From a virus (lineage: Duplodnaviria > Caudoviricetes), in IMG/VR virus record IMGVR_UViG_3300010052_000181, positions 1 through 59,328 of that record: a DNA stretch of 59,328 bases. One strand, 5' to 3'. Both the position numbers and the translations under genes were made by a program. The notes under the pieces were generated by a model that ran no database searches, was not told the origin of the DNA, and was given only the letters and a program-made list of their open reading frames with translations. Position 1 is the stretch's first letter. Every line of letters starts with the position of its first letter. Positions 25,019 to 38,395 of the stretch are shown piece after piece.

Positions 25019-25227
25019 TACGGCTCACGCCTGCGCGCCGTGAGTATCACACCGGCGAGGACCAGAGACCCGCCGGTGATGTACCCTGCCGACGGATGTA
25101 TGAGCCATGCGCCGTAAGAAATCGAACCGACAGCGGTCAGCCCGACGGCGTCACGAAACAGCGGCGGCACCGTTCGCGCGATCCACCCACCGATTTTCGC
25201 CAACGCCCCGCCTAACCGATCGACCAT
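25018..25227 (-). CDS. Small 2-TM protein between terminase and portal
   Basis: TGATG/TAATG coupling; ISYGAWLI.P.AG.I.GG. Confidence 0.7.
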   Translation of the reverse strand: MVDRLGGALAKIGGWIARTVPPLFRDAVGLTAVGSISYGAWLIHPSAGYITGGSLVLAGVILTARRREP

Positions 25228-26930
25228 CAGATCACCATGAGTTCTTCGTTGTTGAGGTACGAGCCGCCGGCGTTTGGATTCCGACCCATCAAGACGACGC
25301 ACCCAAAGGTCGCCATCAGCGGATCGATCTTGGCCGTGCCGGATACCTGTTTCGTGATCGAGATCGCGTTGCCGCGTGGCTCGACCCTCGCATTCTCGAC
25401 AGCCCAGTCCATCAGCTCGAGCCCGCCGTGCACCAGCGTGCCGCCGGCGAGCGCGCGTTCAGTTGTTTTGATGGCGCCGTTCAGCTGCCAGCCCTGCGGA
25501 ATGCCGACGATGCGTTCCGACGCAATGCCCCGGCCTTCGGCGGTCAGCGCCTTGGTGATGTCGGTAACGCCAAACGAGTCGACGCCGACCGAATCCTCCT
25601 CTGCGAGAAGGCCGGCTTCCTCGATCTGCATGATAAGCAGCGCGACCTCGTCGACGTCGTCACCGGGTTTCTGCACGATTGTCAGCTGGTTCAGTCCCTG
25701 CAAGTCCTGCAGCTTCGCCGCAATATCCTTGCGGCGCTTCAGCACGATCTTGTGGGCCCAGGCGTGGTTCCAGAGCAGCCAGCGGCCGGTCCCGATCTCG
25801 CGGCCGAGCGCCGCAAAGCCGAGAAGATCGTCGAGCCCGCCGCCGTCGATGTGCACCACGATGACTTCCGAACGCTTCAGAAGCTCGGCGAACGTCAGCG
25901 TTCGATCGACGTTCGACGAACCGGTCTCGGGGTTGCCGCGCCAGAACTCGGCGCCGGCCCAGCTATCCCCGCCGAGTGCGATGCCGATCTCGATGTTGAG
26001 GTGCTGTGACGCCCACAACCGGATCGCGGCGTCGCCCTTCGGTTCCTCGCCGGCGAAATCCTCGATCAGCGCCTCGATCGTGATGGACCGGTCGCGGTTC
26101 GGCGTGACCATCCACCAGTTCTCAGGGTTCCGCCAGGAGCCGTCCTTCATCATGCGGACGGGGAACTCGTACAGGATCGGCAGCATGTTGCCGACTTGCT
26201 TCCCGTCGCGTATCGCGCGCGCCTTCTGCAATTCCTCCTTGAAGATACCGACCGGGGCCTCATCCGACTGCGTCGTGATGATGATCAGGAAACCCTCGGG
26301 GAAGGGCAGTATGCCGCCCCTGATCTGCCGCAACACCTTCGCCGCCTTGGCATCCTTGCCGAGCTCGTGCAGCTCGTCGATCAGCACGCCGACCGGTTTG
26401 ACGCCGACCAGAATCTTGGTGTCGAACGTCTTGATCTTCAGCTTCGCGCCGTTGGTGCGGTCGCGGATCGTCTTCGTATGCTCGACGCAGTGGAACCGCT
26501 TCATCAGGTACGGGTCGGCTTCGATCATGCCGACCGCCTGGCTGAAGGCGGTCTCCGAAACGGCCTGCGTCGGGCCGATAAGCAGAAACTCGGCGCGCGG
26601 CCGCTCGTTGACGAGCAGCGCCGTCATCATGATCGCGGCGGAGCCGGTCGTCTTGTTGTTCTTCTTCGGGACCAGGTTGAAGATTTCCCGAATGAACCGG
26701 GCCTCTCCATCCTCGACGAAGCCCCCGAACAGAGCGGCCACGATGTCGCGTTGCCAGTCGCCGCACGCTTCGCCGAGCGTTGGCTGGCCGATGACGTCGG
26801 GCAACCTCAGCTTGTTGAAGATCTTGACCGCCGTCGCCGCCTTTTCAGCGTGCAGCGGCAGATCCGGGAGAAGCGATTGCCCGGCCTCAAGTCGCGTCGC
26901 CCAGTCCGGGCACGCCAGCGTGGCGTACAT
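25227..26930 (-). CDS. terL: Terminase large subunit
   Basis: PKKNNKTT Walker A variant, LIDELH Walker B, IDGGGLDDL nuclease motif, KIDP. Confidence 0.95.
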   Translation of the reverse strand: MYATLACPDWATRLEAGQSLLPDLPLHAEKAATAVKIFNKLRLPDVIGQPTLGEACGDWQRDIVAALFGGFVEDGEARFIREIFNLVPKKNNKTTGSAAIMMTALLVNERPRAEFLLIGPTQAVSETAFSQAVGMIEADPYLMKRFHCVEHTKTIRDRTNGAKLKIKTFDTKILVGVKPVGVLIDELHELGKDAKAAKVLRQIRGGILPFPEGFLIIITTQSDEAPVGIFKEELQKARAIRDGKQVGNMLPILYEFPVRMMKDGSWRNPENWWMVTPNRDRSITIEALIEDFAGEEPKGDAAIRLWASQHLNIEIGIALGGDSWAGAEFWRGNPETGSSNVDRTLTFAELLKRSEVIVVHIDGGGLDDLLGFAALGREIGTGRWLLWNHAWAHKIVLKRRKDIAAKLQDLQGLNQLTIVQKPGDDVDEVALLIMQIEEAGLLAEEDSVGVDSFGVTDITKALTAEGRGIASERIVGIPQGWQLNGAIKTTERALAGGTLVHGGLELMDWAVENARVEPRGNAISITKQVSGTAKIDPLMATFGCVVLMGRNPNAGGSYLNNEELMVI

Positions 26931-27343
26931 CAGGCTGGCCGACGATTGGCGGGCAAGATGTCGGACCAATCGGCGGTCGGCGGCTCGTTCGCCTCAGCCT
27001 CGGCCTGGGCCTTCTTGCCGAGCGGCTTTTGCGCCGGCTGCGTCGGCTCCCTCGGCTTCGGCGGCGGGTTGTATTCAGACCAGCCGGCGCGAGTCTTCAT
27101 CCAGAAGATTGCCGCGGTGACGGCCTCGCGGCCTTTGCCGGTGGCGATCTTATAGAGGTTGGCGCCGACGCGCGAGTTGGCGACGATCAGAGCTCGATCG
27201 ATCTCGCCGCGGTAGTGCTTTCGCAGCGTCTTCACGTCGATCTCAAGGACCGTCGCGATTTCCTCCTGCGTTACTACGACCGCCATCGCCTCGACCATCT
27301 TGCGTGATTTGGCGTCTGGATTGTGCCGGCTGCCCTGCGGCAT
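26930..27343 (-). CDS. terS: Terminase small subunit
   Basis: HTH (EIA..LEID.KTLRKHY..E), AAIFW.K.RAGW, GKK motif; coupled to terL. Confidence 0.85.
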   Translation of the reverse strand: MPQGSRHNPDAKSRKMVEAMAVVVTQEEIATVLEIDVKTLRKHYRGEIDRALIVANSRVGANLYKIATGKGREAVTAAIFWMKTRAGWSEYNPPPKPREPTQPAQKPLGKKAQAEAEANEPPTADWSDILPANRRPA

Positions 27344-27479
27344 ATGATGTTCTCATAAGTACATGCTTTTGCTGCATTTTTTCGCAGACTTGGCATTGCT
27401 TCTGTTTTCGATGGCGAGCAATCGTCGTTCATCGCGAGCGGCATGGTGCCGTCTCGGAAAACTACGAGAGGAACGACAG

Positions 27480-28136
27480 ATGACGCAGATCAATATCACC
27501 GGCCTTGAAGTGGCCAAGCTAACCGCTGTGATCACCGGCGGCGGCTTCAAGCGCTCCGCTTCCAAAGAGATCGCAGCGACCCGCTTTTACAACGCGGCGT
27601 CCAACCGCGGCATTGCGGTGGTCGACGCGGCGATTATCCTCGAGGCCGCTACGTTTGAAGCCGCCAGTGCCCAGCTGCAGGCACTTCTGGCTCCACCGGC
27701 CGCTGCCAAGAAGGCTGCAGCGGAACGTAAAACACCGGTAGCCAAGGACCGGGCCGCGACCGAACAGAAGGCCGGAAGCAAGATCGGCGCCGTCATGGAA
27801 CGCGCCAAGTCCGATCACGGCGTGTCAAACAGTGAGATCCGCTCAATGACCGGGTGGGCCAAGCTTGGCGGCTTCTTCAACGCGGTGACGAATAGCGGGT
27901 TCGATCGCCATCGCGTCCGCGAGGATGGCGACACCCGGTGGTTCGTCGTCGCGCCCGGCTCCGGATGTCACGCGTATATCCGCCCGGCCGCCGGCGAGCC
28001 TTTCCAACGGTTCGGCACCTACAAGGATGCGGACGAAGCCAGCAAGGCCGCCAAGGAAACGGCCGCGGCCGACGGCGAGGACGTCTCGATCGAGATGATC
28101 GCCGATACCGCGATGCTGATCACGGCTACCACCTGA
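27480..28136 (+). CDS. Putative DNA-binding protein with DUF3489-like wHTH
   Basis: GSKIGAVM......GVS.SEI...TGW pattern; GAGG RBS. Confidence 0.55.
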   Translation: MTQINITGLEVAKLTAVITGGGFKRSASKEIAATRFYNAASNRGIAVVDAAIILEAATFEAASAQLQALLAPPAAAKKAAAERKTPVAKDRAATEQKAGSKIGAVMERAKSDHGVSNSEIRSMTGWAKLGGFFNAVTNSGFDRHRVREDGDTRWFVVAPGSGCHAYIRPAAGEPFQRFGTYKDADEASKAAKETAAADGEDVSIEMIADTAMLITATT

Positions 28137-28479
28137 TCACGACGCCTTCGAACTCGTCACCGTTAAGGCCGCTGTAGTACTCCGCAGCAGCCTCAGCGCT
28201 TTCATGGCCGAGCTCTGCAGCCAGCGCGGCGACGTCGGCCCCTGACAAAGCAATCCCGTTTTGCGCGATGGCGAGTCGGCCGCTCCTGATCGAAACGTCG
28301 ACCAGGTCGACGCCCGACACGAGGGGATCAGGATCGACGAGCCGACCGGTTCCGTACATGAGCGTCGCGCGCTCGCCGACCTTTGGAACGCGATGCCCGC
28401 GCCGACGCAGGGTCGCGCGCTTCTTGCCGCTAGCGACGAGCGGCGTCAGGTGATCGCGCAAAAACCTAAGCAGAGCCAT
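28126..28479 (-). CDS. ASCH/PUA-like domain protein
   Basis: VASGKKRATLR......KVGE motif; TGATG coupling. Confidence 0.7.
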   Translation of the reverse strand: MALLRFLRDHLTPLVASGKKRATLRRRGHRVPKVGERATLMYGTGRLVDPDPLVSGVDLVDVSIRSGRLAIAQNGIALSGADVAALAAELGHESAEAAAEYYSGLNGDEFEGVVIRW

Positions 28480-29147
28480 CAGGCCGCGTTCCTTGATACG
28501 CGGAAGCCGGCGGGCATCGCCCCGATCAGTTCCAGTTCAGGTCTGAACGCCGGTGCCCGCTCCCACGACGGCTCCCAGGACGCGAGCCTATGATCCTGCG
28601 GCGCCCGTCTGACAAGCCCCGACATGAGGTCGCGGATCGTTTGGCGCAGGAGCTCGACGCCGAGCGGCATGAGCTTCGCCCGCCACAACTCGCCGGCGTC
28701 CTCGTCGGGATCGATAAAAACGTGCCGCTGCGCGGCGACATCGCCGGCGTCGATGGCGTCACCGAGCCAGAACACAGTCCCGCCGGTTACCGCCTCTCGC
28801 ATATGGACGGCCCAACGCACGGCATCGCGGCCCCGATGACGCGGGAGGAGGGACGGGTGGTAGCCGATTGCGCCAAGCCGGGCACGCGCCCGCGTCTTCG
28901 CGCCGATGAAGTCGAAGCTGTGCGCGGCAACGATCAGATCGGTGTCGGGGGGCACCACTCCGGCTCGCAGGCGGCCGGCCTCAACGCAGGGGACCTCGTC
29001 TCGCTCGGCTTCCCACCTGAGGCGGTCGACACCGCCGTCCGCCCGCAGCAGCGGCGCCGAAGCGGCGACGACGTCGCATTTTTCGTCGCGAAGCATCCGG
29101 TAGACGGCCGCCCCAAACTCCTTCTGGCCGGCGATCAAGACCCTCAT
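28479..29147 (-). CDS. Formyltransferase (Fmt/PurN-like N-terminal domain only)
   Basis: GYHPSLLPRHRG..AV.W and IDAGD motifs. Confidence 0.9.
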   Translation of the reverse strand: MRVLIAGQKEFGAAVYRMLRDEKCDVVAASAPLLRADGGVDRLRWEAERDEVPCVEAGRLRAGVVPPDTDLIVAAHSFDFIGAKTRARARLGAIGYHPSLLPRHRGRDAVRWAVHMREAVTGGTVFWLGDAIDAGDVAAQRHVFIDPDEDAGELWRAKLMPLGVELLRQTIRDLMSGLVRRAPQDHRLASWEPSWERAPAFRPELELIGAMPAGFRVSRNAA

Positions 29148-30304
29148 GACGAGGCCTCGACCGCCAGGGCGGCTTGACCGTAGAAGCGAAAGCCTTGGAC
29201 TGCCCGGAAATGACCCCCGAACCCCGCCTGCAGCGCTGCCTTACCCTTTTTCGCCGCGCTCTTGTTGATCGACATGGCGCTCTTGCGCCTGCTGTCGCCG
29301 TGAAGTGTGGCTGACAGCTGGCGCCACCTGCGGTCCCGCCTCAGCGCCGCGCACAGCTGCGGGTGGCTGGTATGGAAGATCGTCGTTGCCGGCCGGCCGG
29401 AGAGCCGGGCCCAGTCCTCGCCTCGCTCCTGAGCAGCGCAGATCTCGTTCAGGAAACGTAGCCCGACGCCGGCGCCCTGCCATTCAGGCATGACCACCAG
29501 GCGGCAGGCCCGCGCCTCGACTTCGCGTCCCTTGTTCTTCGATGAGACCCCGAGGTGACAGACGAGTTCCCCGTCGACCACCCCGACGTAATACGCGCAG
29601 CCGACCATCCGCGGCAGCTTCAGATAGTGATGCGGCTCAAAGAGCGGCCAGTAATTTCCGTCCGTCTTCCAGATTTCGAGATCGAACGAAGGCCGTCGAA
29701 GACGCCCCCTTGCGAAGGAGCCCTTCGCCGTATCGAACACCCAGTCCGGCTCGATCCACTCCACGACGTCGTAGTGTGGCGTCAAAAGTACGACCTGGCC
29801 GGAGCCTCGCCGCCACGACTTCGCAAAGGCGAGGGCGCCGAATTTGGCGATCTGCCGATCGACAACTGACGTGAACTCGTCGACGATCGCGCGGGCCGGC
29901 GCCTCGACCACCAAGCGGGCGAGGTCTGCCCGGAACTTCTCTCCGTTGGAGAGCACCGGGTAGGGCCTCAGCCATGTCGGCACCGTACCCAGGCCGACGG
30001 ATCCAAGCGCCGCCGTGACATCGTTAAACTCGCCGTCCGGCGCGATCGCGTCGATAATCGGCGCGTCGTCCGGCCACTCGGGCAGCCAGAACGGCGCCGG
30101 CTCCCCGAATATCTGGCGACCGATCGACGTCTTTCCGGACCCGGACGGGCCGACGATGACGCCGATTCGCCAGTCACCTCCATCGATGTCGAGCTCTGCG
30201 TCGAGCGAGAAATCGCAGCCGGTTTCGGCGTTGAACAGGCTTTTCGTGCGGGCCGCCCGGTAGCTGTTGAAGTCCGAGCAGCGGTTCCTTACCTCGACCT
30301 TCAT
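29144..30304 (-). CDS. ABC-type ATPase fused to GNAT acyltransferase
   Basis: GPSGSGKT, LSNGEK, IVDEF, TPH; HHYL and RLVVMPEWQGAGVG. Confidence 0.88.
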   Translation of the reverse strand: MKVEVRNRCSDFNSYRAARTKSLFNAETGCDFSLDAELDIDGGDWRIGVIVGPSGSGKTSIGRQIFGEPAPFWLPEWPDDAPIIDAIAPDGEFNDVTAALGSVGLGTVPTWLRPYPVLSNGEKFRADLARLVVEAPARAIVDEFTSVVDRQIAKFGALAFAKSWRRGSGQVVLLTPHYDVVEWIEPDWVFDTAKGSFARGRLRRPSFDLEIWKTDGNYWPLFEPHHYLKLPRMVGCAYYVGVVDGELVCHLGVSSKNKGREVEARACRLVVMPEWQGAGVGLRFLNEICAAQERGEDWARLSGRPATTIFHTSHPQLCAALRRDRRWRQLSATLHGDSRRKSAMSINKSAAKKGKAALQAGFGGHFRAVQGFRFYGQAALAVEASS

Positions 30305-30855
30305 GTCACGACCACCTTGACCTGGTGGCCCGACTTTGCGAGCTGGCCGAAGACCTCGGCTTGGTGCTTTTCGTCGCGGCAGACGACGATGACACCATAC
30401 TGCTCGCTGTAGCGGTCAGCGGGAATCGAGGCGTCGTCGTCTTCGCCGCCAAGCAGCCCGAGCGATTCCGGGTCCAGCCCGAGTTCGCCAAGGTCCATGT
30501 CCAAGTCGGCGAGATCGTCGAGCTCGAGCGACAGCGCGGGCAAGTCCCAGCTCGTCTCCTCACCAACGCGGTTGTCAGCCAGGCGGTACGCCTTGACCTG
30601 CTTCGACGTCAGCCCGTCCGCGACATGCACCGGGACGAATTCGAGCCCAAGGTGCTGTGCGGCTTTCAGCCGGGTATGGCCGACGATGATGACGCCGGCG
30701 GCGTCGACCACGATCGGCTGCCGCCATCCGAACTCTCGGATTGAGGCCGCGACCTTCAGGACCGCGCTTTCCGGGATGACCCGCGGATTGCGTTCGTAGG
30801 GGATAACCTCGTCGATCGGCCGCATCTCGGCCGAGTAGGAATTGTGCGATTGCAT
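30301..30855 (-). CDS. ParB/Srx N-terminal domain protein (packaging-associated type)
   Basis: PYERNPR, SIREFGWRQPIVVD, GHTRLKAA, AYRLADNR. Confidence 0.9.
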   Translation of the reverse strand: MQSHNSYSAEMRPIDEVIPYERNPRVIPESAVLKVAASIREFGWRQPIVVDAAGVIIVGHTRLKAAQHLGLEFVPVHVADGLTSKQVKAYRLADNRVGEETSWDLPALSLELDDLADLDMDLGELGLDPESLGLLGGEDDDASIPADRYSEQYGVIVVCRDEKHQAEVFGQLAKSGHQVKVVVT

Positions 30856-31048: not shown

Positions 31049-31148
31049 GAAAAAAATCCACGCGTGAGCCCCGAGCGGTTCAGCCCCCCAAGGCCCCAGA
31101 GATCGGATACCCCCCTCCCTTGCCCGTTTGACGGGGCAGGGGGGTCAG
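31049..31148 (-). other. Probable cos/packaging-initiation region
   Basis: Non-coding G-run/hairpin/T-run segment just downstream of HNH, where HK97-like phages usually carry cos; cut site not determined. Confidence 0.45.
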
Positions 31149-31194
31149 CTGTCGATGGTGATCGACCTTGATGAAGTCCGGGGACGGATGAAGG

Positions 31195-31524
31195 TCAGAT
31201 GGGCTGCTGCATGCGCTGTGCTCGAGCACGCAGCCCTTTCAGGGTGTTATGCTTGACGCATAGACATTGCCCGTTTGCAGGATCGAGTGCTGATCCACCA
31301 TCCTTGCGTTCGGTGATGTGGTCAGCGATCAGACGGAGCGGAGCTGCCGTCAGGCAGCGCTTCCCATCTTCGACCCATTCACATCGGTATCCAGCACGGG
31401 CGATGACCTGTGCCCGCCATGCCCGGTGCTCAGGTGTGAGCAGCTCAGGATCAGCCTTCTTACGAGCAGGGCTGGCGGTACGGATGTCGAGGGTTCGCAC
31501 CGAGGGGCGGAGCAAGCGCACCAT
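31195..31524 (-). CDS. HNH endonuclease (terminase-associated)
   Basis: RCE...C...ADHI.E..DGG..LD..NGQCLC..HN..K. Confidence 0.9.
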   Translation of the reverse strand: MVRLLRPSVRTLDIRTASPARKKADPELLTPEHRAWRAQVIARAGYRCEWVEDGKRCLTAAPLRLIADHITERKDGGSALDPANGQCLCVKHNTLKGLRARAQRMQQPI

Positions 31525-36688: not shown

Positions 36689-38395
36689 TCAGGCGTCCTC
36701 GAGCTCGGTTTCGTCCACCTCGTCCTCGATCGATTCCGGGTCAGGATGCGGTTCTGGGGCCGTCGGTATCGCGCCGGGGCCGCCATAGGTCGCGCAGCGC
36801 AGCTCTGGCGGCAGCCAGCCCGTCGATGGCACGTTGGCCACCGCGAAGGCGACCAGCTCGGCCTTCTTCATTTTGTCCGCCTTCTTGGCTTCATCCTCGT
36901 TGATCGCCTCGCGGATCGCCTGAACAACCAGGGGCTTCGCGACGCCACCGAAATAGTCGGCCGGATCGAAAGCACCCGTGAGAGCTAGCTCCATCCGCTT
37001 GCCGTCGATCGCATTGGCGAGCGGTGCCGCCATGGCGTCGAAGATGACGTTGCCGCTGTTGTGGCGCTGCAGATCCAGCGCCTCGCCGGCGAGCCCGGCC
37101 GCCACCTTGAAGAGATCGGCGTCGTTCATCGCAGAAAAGCGTTGAAAGAGAATGCTGAACTTTTCCGGTTGACGGCCGCCGCTCCGATAGCCGTTGATCG
37201 ATGCTTTCAGCGGACCATCGTTCCAGCTCGTCAGGCCCGCCAGCAAGGCGACGAGACCGACGCGCGGCTCTTCTGCCAGTGCTGTCCTGGTGCCCATCGT
37301 GGCGGCCACGCTGAGGCGGTGCATCATGGCATTGGAGACCGTCGGCGGGGCCGGCGCCTTGCCGTCAGCCTTGTCCTTGGCCTTCTTCTCTTTTTTGGCT
37401 TCCTCGGGCTTCACGACGCCGTAGGTGATCAACAGCTTGCCCTTGTGGTCGAGATCGACGACCGCGCCGGACTTCGCCTTTTCCGCCTTGGTGGCCTTCT
37501 TCTTGTTGAGCGAAAGCTTATCCCACGACCAGGACCAACCCTGTGGCATCTCCGATGCAACCGAGGCCCACGACCAGCCGTCGCCGAGGAGCTCCGCAGC
37601 CTTTGCTGTCAGCTTCTCATCGGCCAGTTTTTTCAGCAGTGCCTTGTCGGATACGACGTGATCCTCGCCGAAGAGGTCCTCGACGACTGCCCCGCCGGCC
37701 TTGACGAAAGCTTTGTCGCCAACGAAGGCGAGCAGCTTTCCGACATCACGATCGCCGGCGCCGAACTCCTGTTTGACGTAGTGGTACCAGAGGCCGCCCG
37801 ACTTCTTGAGCTTCTTGAAAACGCGCTCTTGCTCGTCGATCGAGGGCGCCAAAGTGAAGGCGCGCACCGTTTCGATGAGACTGCCGCGATCGGCGTCGCC
37901 GGCGCGCCACCAGTCCAGCACCAAGGGTGACAGCCGGCCGAGCGCGAGCATGCGGCGGACACGCTTCGGCTCAATCCCGAACCTGCTAGCAATCTGGGTT
38001 TCTGATAGTCCGCGATCAGCGAGCTCCCGGAAGGTCTCGAAGGTGTCGGCCTCGTGCTGGGGTAGCCGGATCAGGTTCTCCGCCTGGCTGATCTCGCGCG
38101 CCGTGGTATCGTCCTCGTCGCCGACGATGACCGGAACCGGGTATTGGTCCGTGACGGGGACGCCGGCGATCGTGCCGCCGGTCGAGGCGAGCTCGCACAT
38201 GACGCGGTACCGGCGATGCCCGGCGATGATCCTGAACTTCTTGCCGGCGGCGCGGACGCGCAGGGATTGCGCCAAGCCGTGAGCGGCGATCGATGCCTTC
38301 AGCTCGTCAAGACCTTCGTCGGATTTCAGGCGGCGGGCGTTGATGCTGTCGTCTGGCTCGAGGTCGACGAGCGCTACTGACGTGATGTCGGTCAT
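36689..38395 (-). CDS. ParB/RepB/Spo0J family protein (long form)
   Basis: LKASIAAHGL.Q.L.V, IIAGHRRY, AENLIR, HTH. Confidence 0.88.
   Translation of the reverse strand: MTDITSVALVDLEPDDSINARRLKSDEGLDELKASIAAHGLAQSLRVRAAGKKFRIIAGHRRYRVMCELASTGGTIAGVPVTDQYPVPVIVGDEDDTTAREISQAENLIRLPQHEADTFETFRELADRGLSETQIASRFGIEPKRVRRMLALGRLSPLVLDWWRAGDADRGSLIETVRAFTLAPSIDEQERVFKKLKKSGGLWYHYVKQEFGAGDRDVGKLLAFVGDKAFVKAGGAVVEDLFGEDHVVSDKALLKKLADEKLTAKAAELLGDGWSWASVASEMPQGWSWSWDKLSLNKKKATKAEKAKSGAVVDLDHKGKLLITYGVVKPEEAKKEKKAKDKADGKAPAPPTVSNAMMHRLSVAATMGTRTALAEEPRVGLVALLAGLTSWNDGPLKASINGYRSGGRQPEKFSILFQRFSAMNDADLFKVAAGLAGEALDLQRHNSGNVIFDAMAAPLANAIDGKRMELALTGAFDPADYFGGVAKPLVVQAIREAINEDEAKKADKMKKAELVAFAVANVPSTGWLPPELRCATYGGPGAIPTAPEPHPDPESIEDEVDETELEDA

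Follow-up and report, generated by a model that had tools for sequence, protein, structure and literature searches.

A phage ABC-ATPase-GNAT protein paired with a formyltransferase-fold enzyme as a candidate nucleic-acid base N-acylation module

Here we describe a gene module of the provirus IMGVR_UViG_3300010052_000181, an IMG/VR record of 59,328 bases with a completeness estimate of 92%, which was analysed as a whole and is referred to below as the window. Four minus-strand open reading frames (ORFs) fill positions 30855 to 28126 and encode, in this order, a ParB-N domain protein, an ABC-ATPase fused to a GNAT-type acyltransferase domain (ABC-GNAT), a stand-alone formyltransferase-fold protein (FT) and an ASCH-like small protein. 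We show that the conserved core of the module consists of ABC-GNAT, FT and a mini-domain which in the window ends the ParB-N protein, and that the closest solved relative of FT is the hydrolase domain of 10-formyl-tetrahydrofolate (10-formyl-THF) dehydrogenase (FDH). We propose that this is a phage system, expressed late, which places an N-acyl group on a nucleic-acid base, probably in the phage's own DNA after replication, with FT supplying formyl-CoA, a reading to which we give a probability of roughly 40%. DNA as the substrate, formyl-CoA as the donor, the choice of base, the part played by ATP and an anti-restriction purpose are all inferred.

The preliminary description of this stretch had presented the four ORFs as real, translationally coupled genes, and they behave as such: stop and start codons of neighbouring genes overlap, in order, as ATGA, ATGA and TGATG, codon-position GC is gene-like for all four, and every motif that the description had quoted (GHTR; Walker A, signature and Walker B; HHYL and PEWQGAGVG; HPSLLP) is present. 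Chance ORFs were rejected on codon-position GC and synteny, and the arrangement goes far beyond chance, since its gene order is found again in phages of Actinobacteria, Bacteroidota and Proteobacteria.

The central protein, ABC-GNAT (29144..30304, minus strand, 386 aa), joins an ABC-ATPase (about residues 1-200) to a GNAT domain (about residues 205-386) and matches phrog_11143, a family described as 'ABC-type ATPase with predicted acetyltransferase domain', from end to end (E 7.7e-138; residues 1-378 on profile positions 1-352 of 357). The Pfam match to ABC_tran is above the cut-off (9.1e-6), and that to Acetyltransf_7, the GNAT family, is below it (6.6e-4). The ABC motifs are Walker A 'GPSGSGKT', signature 'LSNGE' and Walker B 'AIVDEF', and the GNAT motifs 'HHYL' and 'PEWQGAGVG'; across an alignment of 70 sequences, GPSGSGKT, LSNGE, VDEF and the H-loop residue H177 are invariant or nearly so, and the motifs PE.QG.G.G, TSHP and GGH are invariant. 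AlphaFold models reached a pLDDT of 85.9 for the full-length protein and 87.8 for residues 200-386, the GNAT part. Foldseek with the full-length model was dominated by ABC transporter nucleotide-binding domains (MalK, SufC and FtsE on top, E about 1e-9) and was uninformative on the GNAT. The GNAT-only model found 93 PDB chains at E<=0.001, and all 37 of the matches listed are GNAT-type acyltransferases, so that model and fold matches together confirm the GNAT fold despite the sub-threshold Pfam score. The ABC domain was rejected as a transporter component, as the preliminary description had held, since it has no permease partner and is part of a soluble fusion to a GNAT. Comparison with PADLOC gave P-loop-level matches and no defence model. 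The family is large, with at least 6784 protein clusters at E<=0.001 among the 8000 candidates examined. As a lead only, proteins of 731 aa that form a cluster and come for the most part from Chlorophyta (88% Eukaryota) have an ESM Atlas language-model score of 0.97 against ABC-GNAT.

The window module is a typical member of a kind that has been predicted before. Iyer et al. 2021 (PMC7824862, section 3.4.7), citing Iyer, Zhang, Burroughs and Aravind (NAR 2013), describe phage proteins with an N-terminal ABC ATPase and a C-terminal GNAT, the same architecture as in the window, as earlier predicted to modify a DNA base with an acyl group that is yet to be characterised. The preliminary description had suspected that similar systems had been predicted computationally without a characterised product, and we likewise found neither a product nor, among the full-text matches listed and with no search aimed specifically at experimental work, an experimental characterisation of the ABC-GNAT family. 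Its proposal of base acylation matches the published prediction; the choice of DNA as substrate is drawn from context. Ronning et al. 2010 (PMC2920897), in the annotation of phage phiE255, name gp29 an 'ABC transporter' and gp30 a formyl transferase and there propose no function, and the MetaGPA paper (PMC8670742) makes no mention of ParB, formyl, ABC, acetyltransferase or ASCH.

To define the module we compared 160 window-like loci. They are the 80 best-scoring from each of two contig collections, genome_contigs and IMG/VR, both of which hold at least about 600 ABC-GNAT matches; tblastn of a phage collection found ABC-GNAT in 61 records and FT in 52. ABC-GNAT and FT stand side by side in the Mu-like Burkholderia phage phiE255 (gp29, gp30), in Pseudomonas phage Komp_PAO1_1 and in Porphyromonas phages, and genes 1-4 of Gordonia phages are ParB-like, ABC-like, FT and terminase. 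ABC-GNAT is 53-60% identical to the window protein across phages of Burkholderia, Pseudomonas, Gordonia and Porphyromonas. The mini-domain lies directly 5' of ABC-GNAT in 133 of the 156 loci with at least 150 bp of room, and FT directly 3' of it in 118 of the 137 with at least 650 bp; because of this adjacency, mini-domain, ABC-GNAT and FT are the conserved core. ParB-N is a frequent add-on, and ParB-N and ASCH are accessories to the core. The view of the four genes as a set thus gives way to a core with ParB-N in 38 of 133 loci and an ASCH-like gene of the window type in 3 of 160. The gene after FT is variable and most often encodes a terminase small subunit (Pfam, 119 downstream genes). Packaging linkage, also claimed earlier, describes one of two placements, at the head of the packaging genes, and agrees with the DNA packaging and replication contexts; the other placement is the distal end of the late operon, as in phiE255, Komp_PAO1_1 and the Porphyromonas phages, where the module lacks ParB-N and follows the tail fibre genes.

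The mini-domain comprises about 38 aa with the consensus Y..QYGVIV.C.DE..Q..VY..L...G...KVV.V, and its end always coincides with the ABC-GNAT start codon. In the window this beta-alpha-beta mini-domain is formed by the last 37 or so residues of the ParB protein (30304..30414, minus strand), of which residues 148-183 match the 54-aa family phrog_28816 (5.4e-9); it is likewise the C-terminus of the ParB protein gp1 of Gordonia phage Sisko. In phiE255 (gp28), Komp_PAO1_1 and a Porphyromonas phage it has a small ORF to itself; the Mu-like and Porphyromonas phages lack ParB-N, and their mini-domain ORF of 42-54 aa overlaps the ABC-GNAT start. When ORFs are called at their longest, 77 of the 133 mini-domains stand alone in an ORF of less than 100 aa and 56 terminate a longer protein. 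Pfam ParB_N is found in 39 of 57 long forms, including the window protein, and the other Pfam matches among these are three single helix-turn-helix (HTH) matches, which makes ParB_N the sole recurrent fusion partner. One Porphyromonas phage record (PP754929.1; locus L003, 3876-4004) labels its mini-domain ORF 'acr candidate protein', a label that is unlikely to be right because the mini-domain is conservedly paired with ABC-GNAT.

The ParB-N protein itself (30301..30855, minus strand, 184 aa) matches Pfam ParB_N (E 6.6e-7; 29.7 bits, cut-off 26.3), phrog_620 (1.6e-47), phrog_498, which is of the ParB-methylase type (1.5e-40), and the N-terminal region of the PADLOC family MTase_II (3.2e-29). 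By these matches it is of the type that is fused to phage DNA methylases. Features of partition ParB were looked for: Pfam found no HTH match, TIGR00180 scored 29.1 bits against a cut-off of 58.45, and the protein has GHTR ('IIVGHTRLKAA') where partition ParB has the GERR CTP motif. Its sequence thus points to membership of the ParB/Srx superfamily and not to a chromosome or plasmid partition ParB. A precedent for such a protein comes from the ParB-dependent thymine dioxygenases of O'Toole et al. (PNAS 2026, PMC13229309), where the gene of a DNA base-modifying enzyme has beside it that of a short phage ParB, made up of a nucleotide-binding N-domain and a small C-terminal domain and lacking an evident DNA-binding domain; this ParB activates the enzyme and is needed for its action on double-stranded DNA. 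The enzyme in that system is an Fe/2OG dioxygenase, and in the present family, unlike there, the mini-domain alone suffices in 77 of 133 loci.

FT (28479..29147, minus strand, 222 aa) carries Formyl_trans_N as its only Pfam match (4.1e-18; 66.2 bits, cut-off 26.1) and matches phrog_9240 (1.5e-50). The preliminary description had called it a stand-alone formyltransferase without the C-terminal tRNA-binding domain of Fmt. That domain is indeed absent, although FT is not a shortened Fmt-like enzyme: against the Fmt equivalog TIGR00460 it scores 59.9 bits with a cut-off of 201.5, and its closest relative is the FDH hydrolase domain. Searched against PDB as a single sequence, FT matched the FDH N-domain best (1.1e-25), followed by Fmt (1.5e-12), ArnA (1e-8) and PurN (7.7e-8); a profile of 42 FT sequences gave FDH at 7.1e-48 (166 bits), the best Fmt at 1.7e-29 (106 bits), ArnA at 4.5e-22, PurN at 3e-17 and, as a distant match only, the HypX N-domain at 9.5e-12. 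The alignment places FT residues 1-193 on FDH residues 1-202, and in its printed form the FDH stretch 'IIYHPSLLPRHRG' lies on 'IGYHPSLLPRHRG' of the window FT. His97, Asp133 and HPSLLP are invariant in the 42 sequences. Two positions before the catalytic His (H-2), all 116 FT partners inspected have G, I, A, S or V and never Asn; the window protein reads G-Y-H. In the one host genome compared (G001), three housekeeping Formyl_trans_N proteins read N-I-H and the prophage FT G-Y-H. By the N-x-H pattern, FT would not be an amine formyltransferase of the PurN/Fmt type. The hydrolase domain of ALDH1L1, the closest solved relative, shares with FT both 'YHPSLLPRHRG' and the absence of Asn at H-2; unlike ALDH1L1, the window FT is stand-alone, has neither a carrier-protein nor an ALDH domain (Pfam) and would use CoA as acceptor. 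Only the catalytic subdomain aligns to FDH, which suggests that FT is domain-like in its working and not a member of the FDH fusion enzyme.

The FDH hydrolase domain transfers formyl to the thiol of a 4'-phosphopantetheine arm (PMC8748788; PMC6802093), and the HypX N-domain has been proposed to make formyl-CoA from 10-formyl-THF and CoA (PMC6802093). The PHROG label would make FT a PurN-like auxiliary metabolic gene, a candidate that was rejected on the missing N-x-H and the obligate pairing with ABC-GNAT. GNATs draw their acyl group from acyl-CoA, and the simplest reading of a stand-alone FDH-like enzyme tightly paired with a GNAT is therefore that it makes the GNAT donor, formyl-CoA. The preliminary description had the operon write an acyl and/or formyl mark; with its likeness to FDH, FT more likely feeds formyl-CoA to the GNAT, for a single mark, than writes a second one.

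A sister clade of ABC-GNAT proteins lends this reading independent support. In the Rhodococcus/Gordonia phage Jace the gene order is ParB-N, ABC-GNAT (37.7% identical to that of the window), aspartate decarboxylase (PanD; Pfam 2e-33) and a protein of about 225 aa that resembles CoA-transferase family III (2.2e-8). A search of IMG/VR with the Jace protein gave 42 loci, of which 20 have an adjacent CoA-transferase-like gene and 16 an adjacent PanD. All 20 belong to the 24 loci in which ABC-GNAT shares 44% identity or more with that of Jace; the independent lineages are fewer than these counts because 6-7 of the PanD/CoA-transferase loci are near-identical copies. Pfam tallies over 111 downstream proteins of the Jace-seeded loci gave 16 CoA-transferases and 14 PanD. 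Neither gene was found in the 160 window-like loci, and FT, present in 129 of those 160, occurs in 1 of the 42. FT on the one hand and PanD with the CoA-transferase on the other are therefore mutually exclusive and follow the GNAT subfamily, and between subfamilies the GNAT motifs near the presumed active site (the TSHP region and the C-terminal GGHFRAVQGF) change together with the type of partner. From these sequences we infer that the partner genes make the acyl-CoA donor of the GNAT, PanD and the CoA-transferase giving what would be beta-alanyl-CoA; Firmicute versions, which lack a donor gene, may use acetyl-CoA.

It is tempting to generalise, if only tentatively and with a confidence below that in the proposal for the window, that ABC-GNAT modules are ATP-driven DNA base N-acyltransferases in which a swappable donor cassette sets the mark and ASCH proteins are erasers. 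In this scheme an FDH-like enzyme would provide formyl-CoA for N-formyl bases (the window type), PanD and the CoA-transferase would provide beta-alanyl-CoA for N-beta-alanyl bases, and modules with no donor cassette would make N-acetyl bases from acetyl-CoA. Six loci of the sister clade (L176-L181; about 5001-8261 in L176) have two ABC-GNAT paralogues flanking the PanD and CoA-transferase-like genes, with ORF lengths of 366, 115, 223 and 367 aa, and the Pfam tally lists six proteins with both ABC_tran and GNAT. A third, more distant ABC-GNAT group among the Jace-seeded loci has a family-B DNA polymerase of about 840 aa two genes downstream (7 proteins; loci L201, L203, L209-L211 and L216), and in Nonlabens phage P12024S ABC-GNAT lies between primase and helicase.

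The ASCH-like gene (28126..28479, minus strand, 117 aa) is an accessory whose assignment in the window is tentative. Pfam ASCH covers residues 9-39 only, at E 0.008, and its 17.3 bits fall short of the cut-off of 21.2. A full HMMER scan of 1.84 billion representatives found 18 other proteins at E<=0.001; six long multi-stretch proteins among them were excluded, which left a family alignment of 13 members, of which 6 touch Pfam ASCH at E<=0.1 (best 0.001). The window protein has the motif K20-x-x-T23-x-R25, with K20 invariant and R25 nearly invariant in the 13 sequences. Escherichia coli YqfB, a small ASCH-type amidohydrolase, hydrolyses N4-acylcytosines through the essential residues Lys21, Thr24 and Arg26 (PMC6972931), and the two proteins share this K-x-x-T-x-R spacing; from sequence alone, an equivalent of Glu74 was not located. 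Unlike YqfB, the window protein lies below the Pfam cut-off, and its family profile has no ASCH match in PDB. The preliminary description's naming of the gene as ASCH is a weak assignment.

Searches with the single ASCH-like sequence found nothing in the 160 loci (tblastn) and only the protein itself in a word-indexed protein search, whereas the family profile, run on 15,612 stop-to-stop ORFs from 202 loci, recovered three more copies (E 5e-23 to 4e-15), all inside the module: between the mini-domain ORF and ABC-GNAT in two loci (L034 and L109), and on the opposite strand between ABC-GNAT and FT in a third (L085). Among the 25 families listed, of 49, in the Pfam scan of the 119 genes downstream of FT or ABC-GNAT, none was ASCH. 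In distant Firmicute versions ParB-N is followed by ABC, by a GNAT with an ORF of its own, by ASCH and by terminase, as seen in Streptococcus phage phiNIH1.1 (record annotation) and Oenococcus phage Vinitor-27 (Pfam ASCH 1.9e-4). ASCH would thus be a sporadic but recurrent accessory. In phiNIH1.1 (L165, 4010-5079) the record names the ABC part, of 225 aa, an 'ABC transporter ATP-binding protein' and leaves the GNAT part unannotated, with only an 89-aa ORF that starts inside the GNAT loop; tblastn joins two pieces in several Streptococcus and Oenococcus phages, and the split could reflect a split gene, a frameshift or a sequencing error.

In the mechanism that we propose, ABC-GNAT would be the writer, and ATP binding and hydrolysis by its ABC domain, probably through dimerisation, would give the GNAT access to the target base, a use of ATP that may be likened to that of the ATPase-dependent GNAT enzymes TmcA and NAT10. 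FT would not act on nucleic acid; it would move formyl from 10-formyl-THF to a phosphopantetheine thiol, here that of free CoA. The resulting formyl-CoA would serve as donor for an N-formyl group on an exocyclic amine, for which N4 of cytosine and N6 of adenine are the obvious candidates. The mini-domain would be an adaptor or activator of the writer, and where ParB-N is fused to it, as here, that domain would link the writer to double-stranded DNA, in the manner of the ParB on which a subclass of phage thymine dioxygenases depends. The ASCH-like protein would be an optional reader, or an amidohydrolase that edits or erases marks of the N-acyl-cytosine type. The context that points to DNA comprises the methylase-type ParB-N and its exclusive recurrence, the terminase, DNA polymerase B, primase and helicase genes among the neighbours, and the late-operon placement; the short ParB of the thymine dioxygenases, as a precedent, and the prediction of 2013 point the same way.

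A parallel is offered by Mom of phage Mu, likewise a late-expressed phage enzyme of GNAT fold that is thought to acylate a DNA base (adenine N6); the distal late-operon place of the module in phiE255 and Komp_PAO1_1 is one that we take to resemble that of mom in Mu. Unlike Mom, the window system includes an ATPase domain, and one of its partner genes relates to the donor; the small upstream ORF encodes a beta-alpha-beta mini-domain and not an evident zinc-finger Com. General Pfam and PHROG scans returned no Mom-named family, the presence of a Mom model in those libraries being unchecked.

Several observations weigh against this proposal. DNA as the probable substrate is deduced from context. 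The generic GNAT fold matches, at near-equal scores and TM values of about 0.45-0.55, are to protein N-acetyltransferases and a 'bacterial toxin' entry and do not favour a nucleic-acid substrate, and the ABC domain resembles transporter-type or SufC/FtsE-type domains and not the DNA-binding ABC clades. We know of no GNAT that uses formyl-CoA, and N-formyl groups on exocyclic base amines are hydrolytically labile (N6-formyladenine is an example), a poor fit to a durable virion mark. The likeness of FT to FDH is no proof of a thiol acceptor, and FT could formylate an amine or merely hydrolyse 10-formyl-THF. Of 137 close loci, 19 lack an adjacent FT, and it is absent from the Firmicute versions. 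In the sister clade, the CoA-transferase-like partner is short, at about 225 aa, and covers only the first 107 or so of 366 profile positions. To these is added the ASCH assignment, which lies under the Pfam cut-off for a family whose profile finds no ASCH structure in PDB and shows no similarity to the Firmicute phage ASCH proteins.

The alternative that survives best, though we consider it unlikely, is the one first put forward for this stretch, in which two enzymes act: the GNAT would acylate or aminoacylate a DNA base from a host acyl-CoA, FT would, afterwards or separately, formylate an amine on the base or adduct, and ASCH would read or erase the product. Such chemistry would suit the company that FT keeps, since among the listed PDB matches with a named acceptor all but FDH and HypX are amine formyltransferases (Fmt, ArnA, PurN, sugar N-formyltransferases and the LgrA F-domain), and the transfer-site His and Asp are invariant in FT; a phage formyltransferase that acts on a DNA base side chain is moreover described in print, namely DpdN, on 7-aminomethyl-7-deazaguanine (10.1101/2023.04.13.536721). 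FT, however, scores some 60 bits higher with the FDH domain, whose acceptor is a thiol, than with any amine formyltransferase and lacks the Asn of the PurN-, Fmt- and PurU-type proteins examined. Canonical DNA has no aliphatic amine, and FT-type loci have no gene for an aminoacyl donor. The sister clade, moreover, swaps FT for CoA-thioester enzymes and not for another tailoring enzyme.

Two further readings name other substrates, and we regard both as live rivals of lower probability. In the first, the target would be RNA, probably tRNA: cytidine N4-acylation dependent on ATP, as by TmcA and NAT10, with ASCH as eraser, would protect or retune host or phage tRNAs, for instance against anticodon nucleases. 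Met-tRNA formyltransferases are the second-best solved relatives of FT, and the top GNAT fold match is 7byy, the entry titled 'bacterial toxin', which is presumably an aminoacyl-tRNA-acetylating toxin. TmcA and NAT10, which make N4-acetylcytidine (ac4C) in RNA, share with the window protein a P-loop ATPase fused to a GNAT, so that ATPase, GNAT and ASCH together parallel the writer and eraser logic of ac4C, which the ASCH-type YqfB hydrolyses (PMC6972931); a 2026 preprint bears the title 'ASCH Domain-Containing Proteins Act as tRNA N4-acetylcytidine Erasers'. The parallel stops at the ATPase, which is ABC-type and not of the TmcA helicase type, and at the lack of a tRNA-binding domain, in ABC-GNAT as well as at the C-terminus of FT. 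The recurrent fusion partner is a ParB-N associated with DNA methylases, the neighbours are terminase, DNA polymerase, primase and helicase genes, a context of DNA metabolism, and the window contains no tRNA genes. An RNA target seems improbable to us, more so than the two-step chemistry on DNA.

Least probable, by a little, is a protein or small-molecule target, such as a defence or transcription protein or a signalling nucleotide N-acylated for host takeover or anti-defence, with ParB-N merely a regulatory nucleotide-binding module: the GNAT fold neighbours, which are mainly protein N-terminal and lysine acetyltransferases (RimI, Naa60, Ard1) and small-molecule GNATs, the typical accessory-gene position in Mu-like phages, the 'acr candidate' annotation in the Porphyromonas phage and an ABC domain of the SufC/FtsE-like type that works with protein partners all fit it, but ABC-GNAT identities of 53-60% across diverse phages point to a universal target, the link with ParB-N and with DNA packaging and replication genes is consistent, and no PADLOC defence model extends beyond the P-loop stretch.

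Returning to base N-acylation with formyl-CoA as the donor, its interest lies partly in the spread of the family, whose phages come from many phyla. Should the donor-cassette reading hold, the modules would make new DNA (or RNA) base marks, formyl and beta-alanyl, that is, previously undescribed natural DNA modifications, and would put formyl-CoA to a new use, with the first GNAT to draw on it. Such marks would bear on restriction escape, on the nanopore and SMRT signals of phage DNA and on tools for enzymatic DNA labelling. Mini-domain/ParB, ABC-GNAT and FT form a defined three-protein set that can be directly expressed and assayed. To our knowledge, the mini-domain adaptor, the hypothesis of an FDH-like FT that makes formyl-CoA and the mutually exclusive donor cassettes are new relative to the papers examined, and they may already stand in Iyer et al. 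2013 or its supplement.

The surroundings of the module are those of a complete siphovirus-like prophage, with major head, tape-measure, tail-fibre and primase/helicase genes in the window. The flanking HNH and terS genes are as the preliminary description had them; the cos site that it also named is putative. Upstream lies an HNH endonuclease gene (31195..31524, minus strand; phrog_589 3.6e-14, Pfam HNH 0.0014). Downstream lie a terS-like gene (26930..27343, minus strand; phrog_12540 5.4e-16, phrog_309 2.7e-9), which overlaps the TerL gene (25227..26969, minus strand; phrog_9 3.3e-92), and, beyond these, a portal gene. Between the ASCH-like gene and terS, an ORF of 257 aa on the opposite strand (27363..28136, plus strand) breaks the otherwise one-directional late region; it had been overlooked earlier, has coding-like codon-position GC and matches no Pfam or NCBIfam family, with a weak PHROG match only.

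A simple promoter and terminator scan returned no promoter-like sites and did not call a G+C-rich inverted repeat (C-run ... G-run) that is followed by a T run and was noticed by eye at about 31060-31170 (minus strand), within the 340-bp gap between the HNH and ParB genes; this repeat could be a terminator after HNH or a packaging-related site. Elsewhere, the provirus encodes a second, much larger ParB-like protein (36689-38395, minus strand, 568 aa), which matches phrog_7783 (1.4e-67) and other ParB-like PHROGs and adjoins a 714-aa protein with a D5-like C-terminal region.

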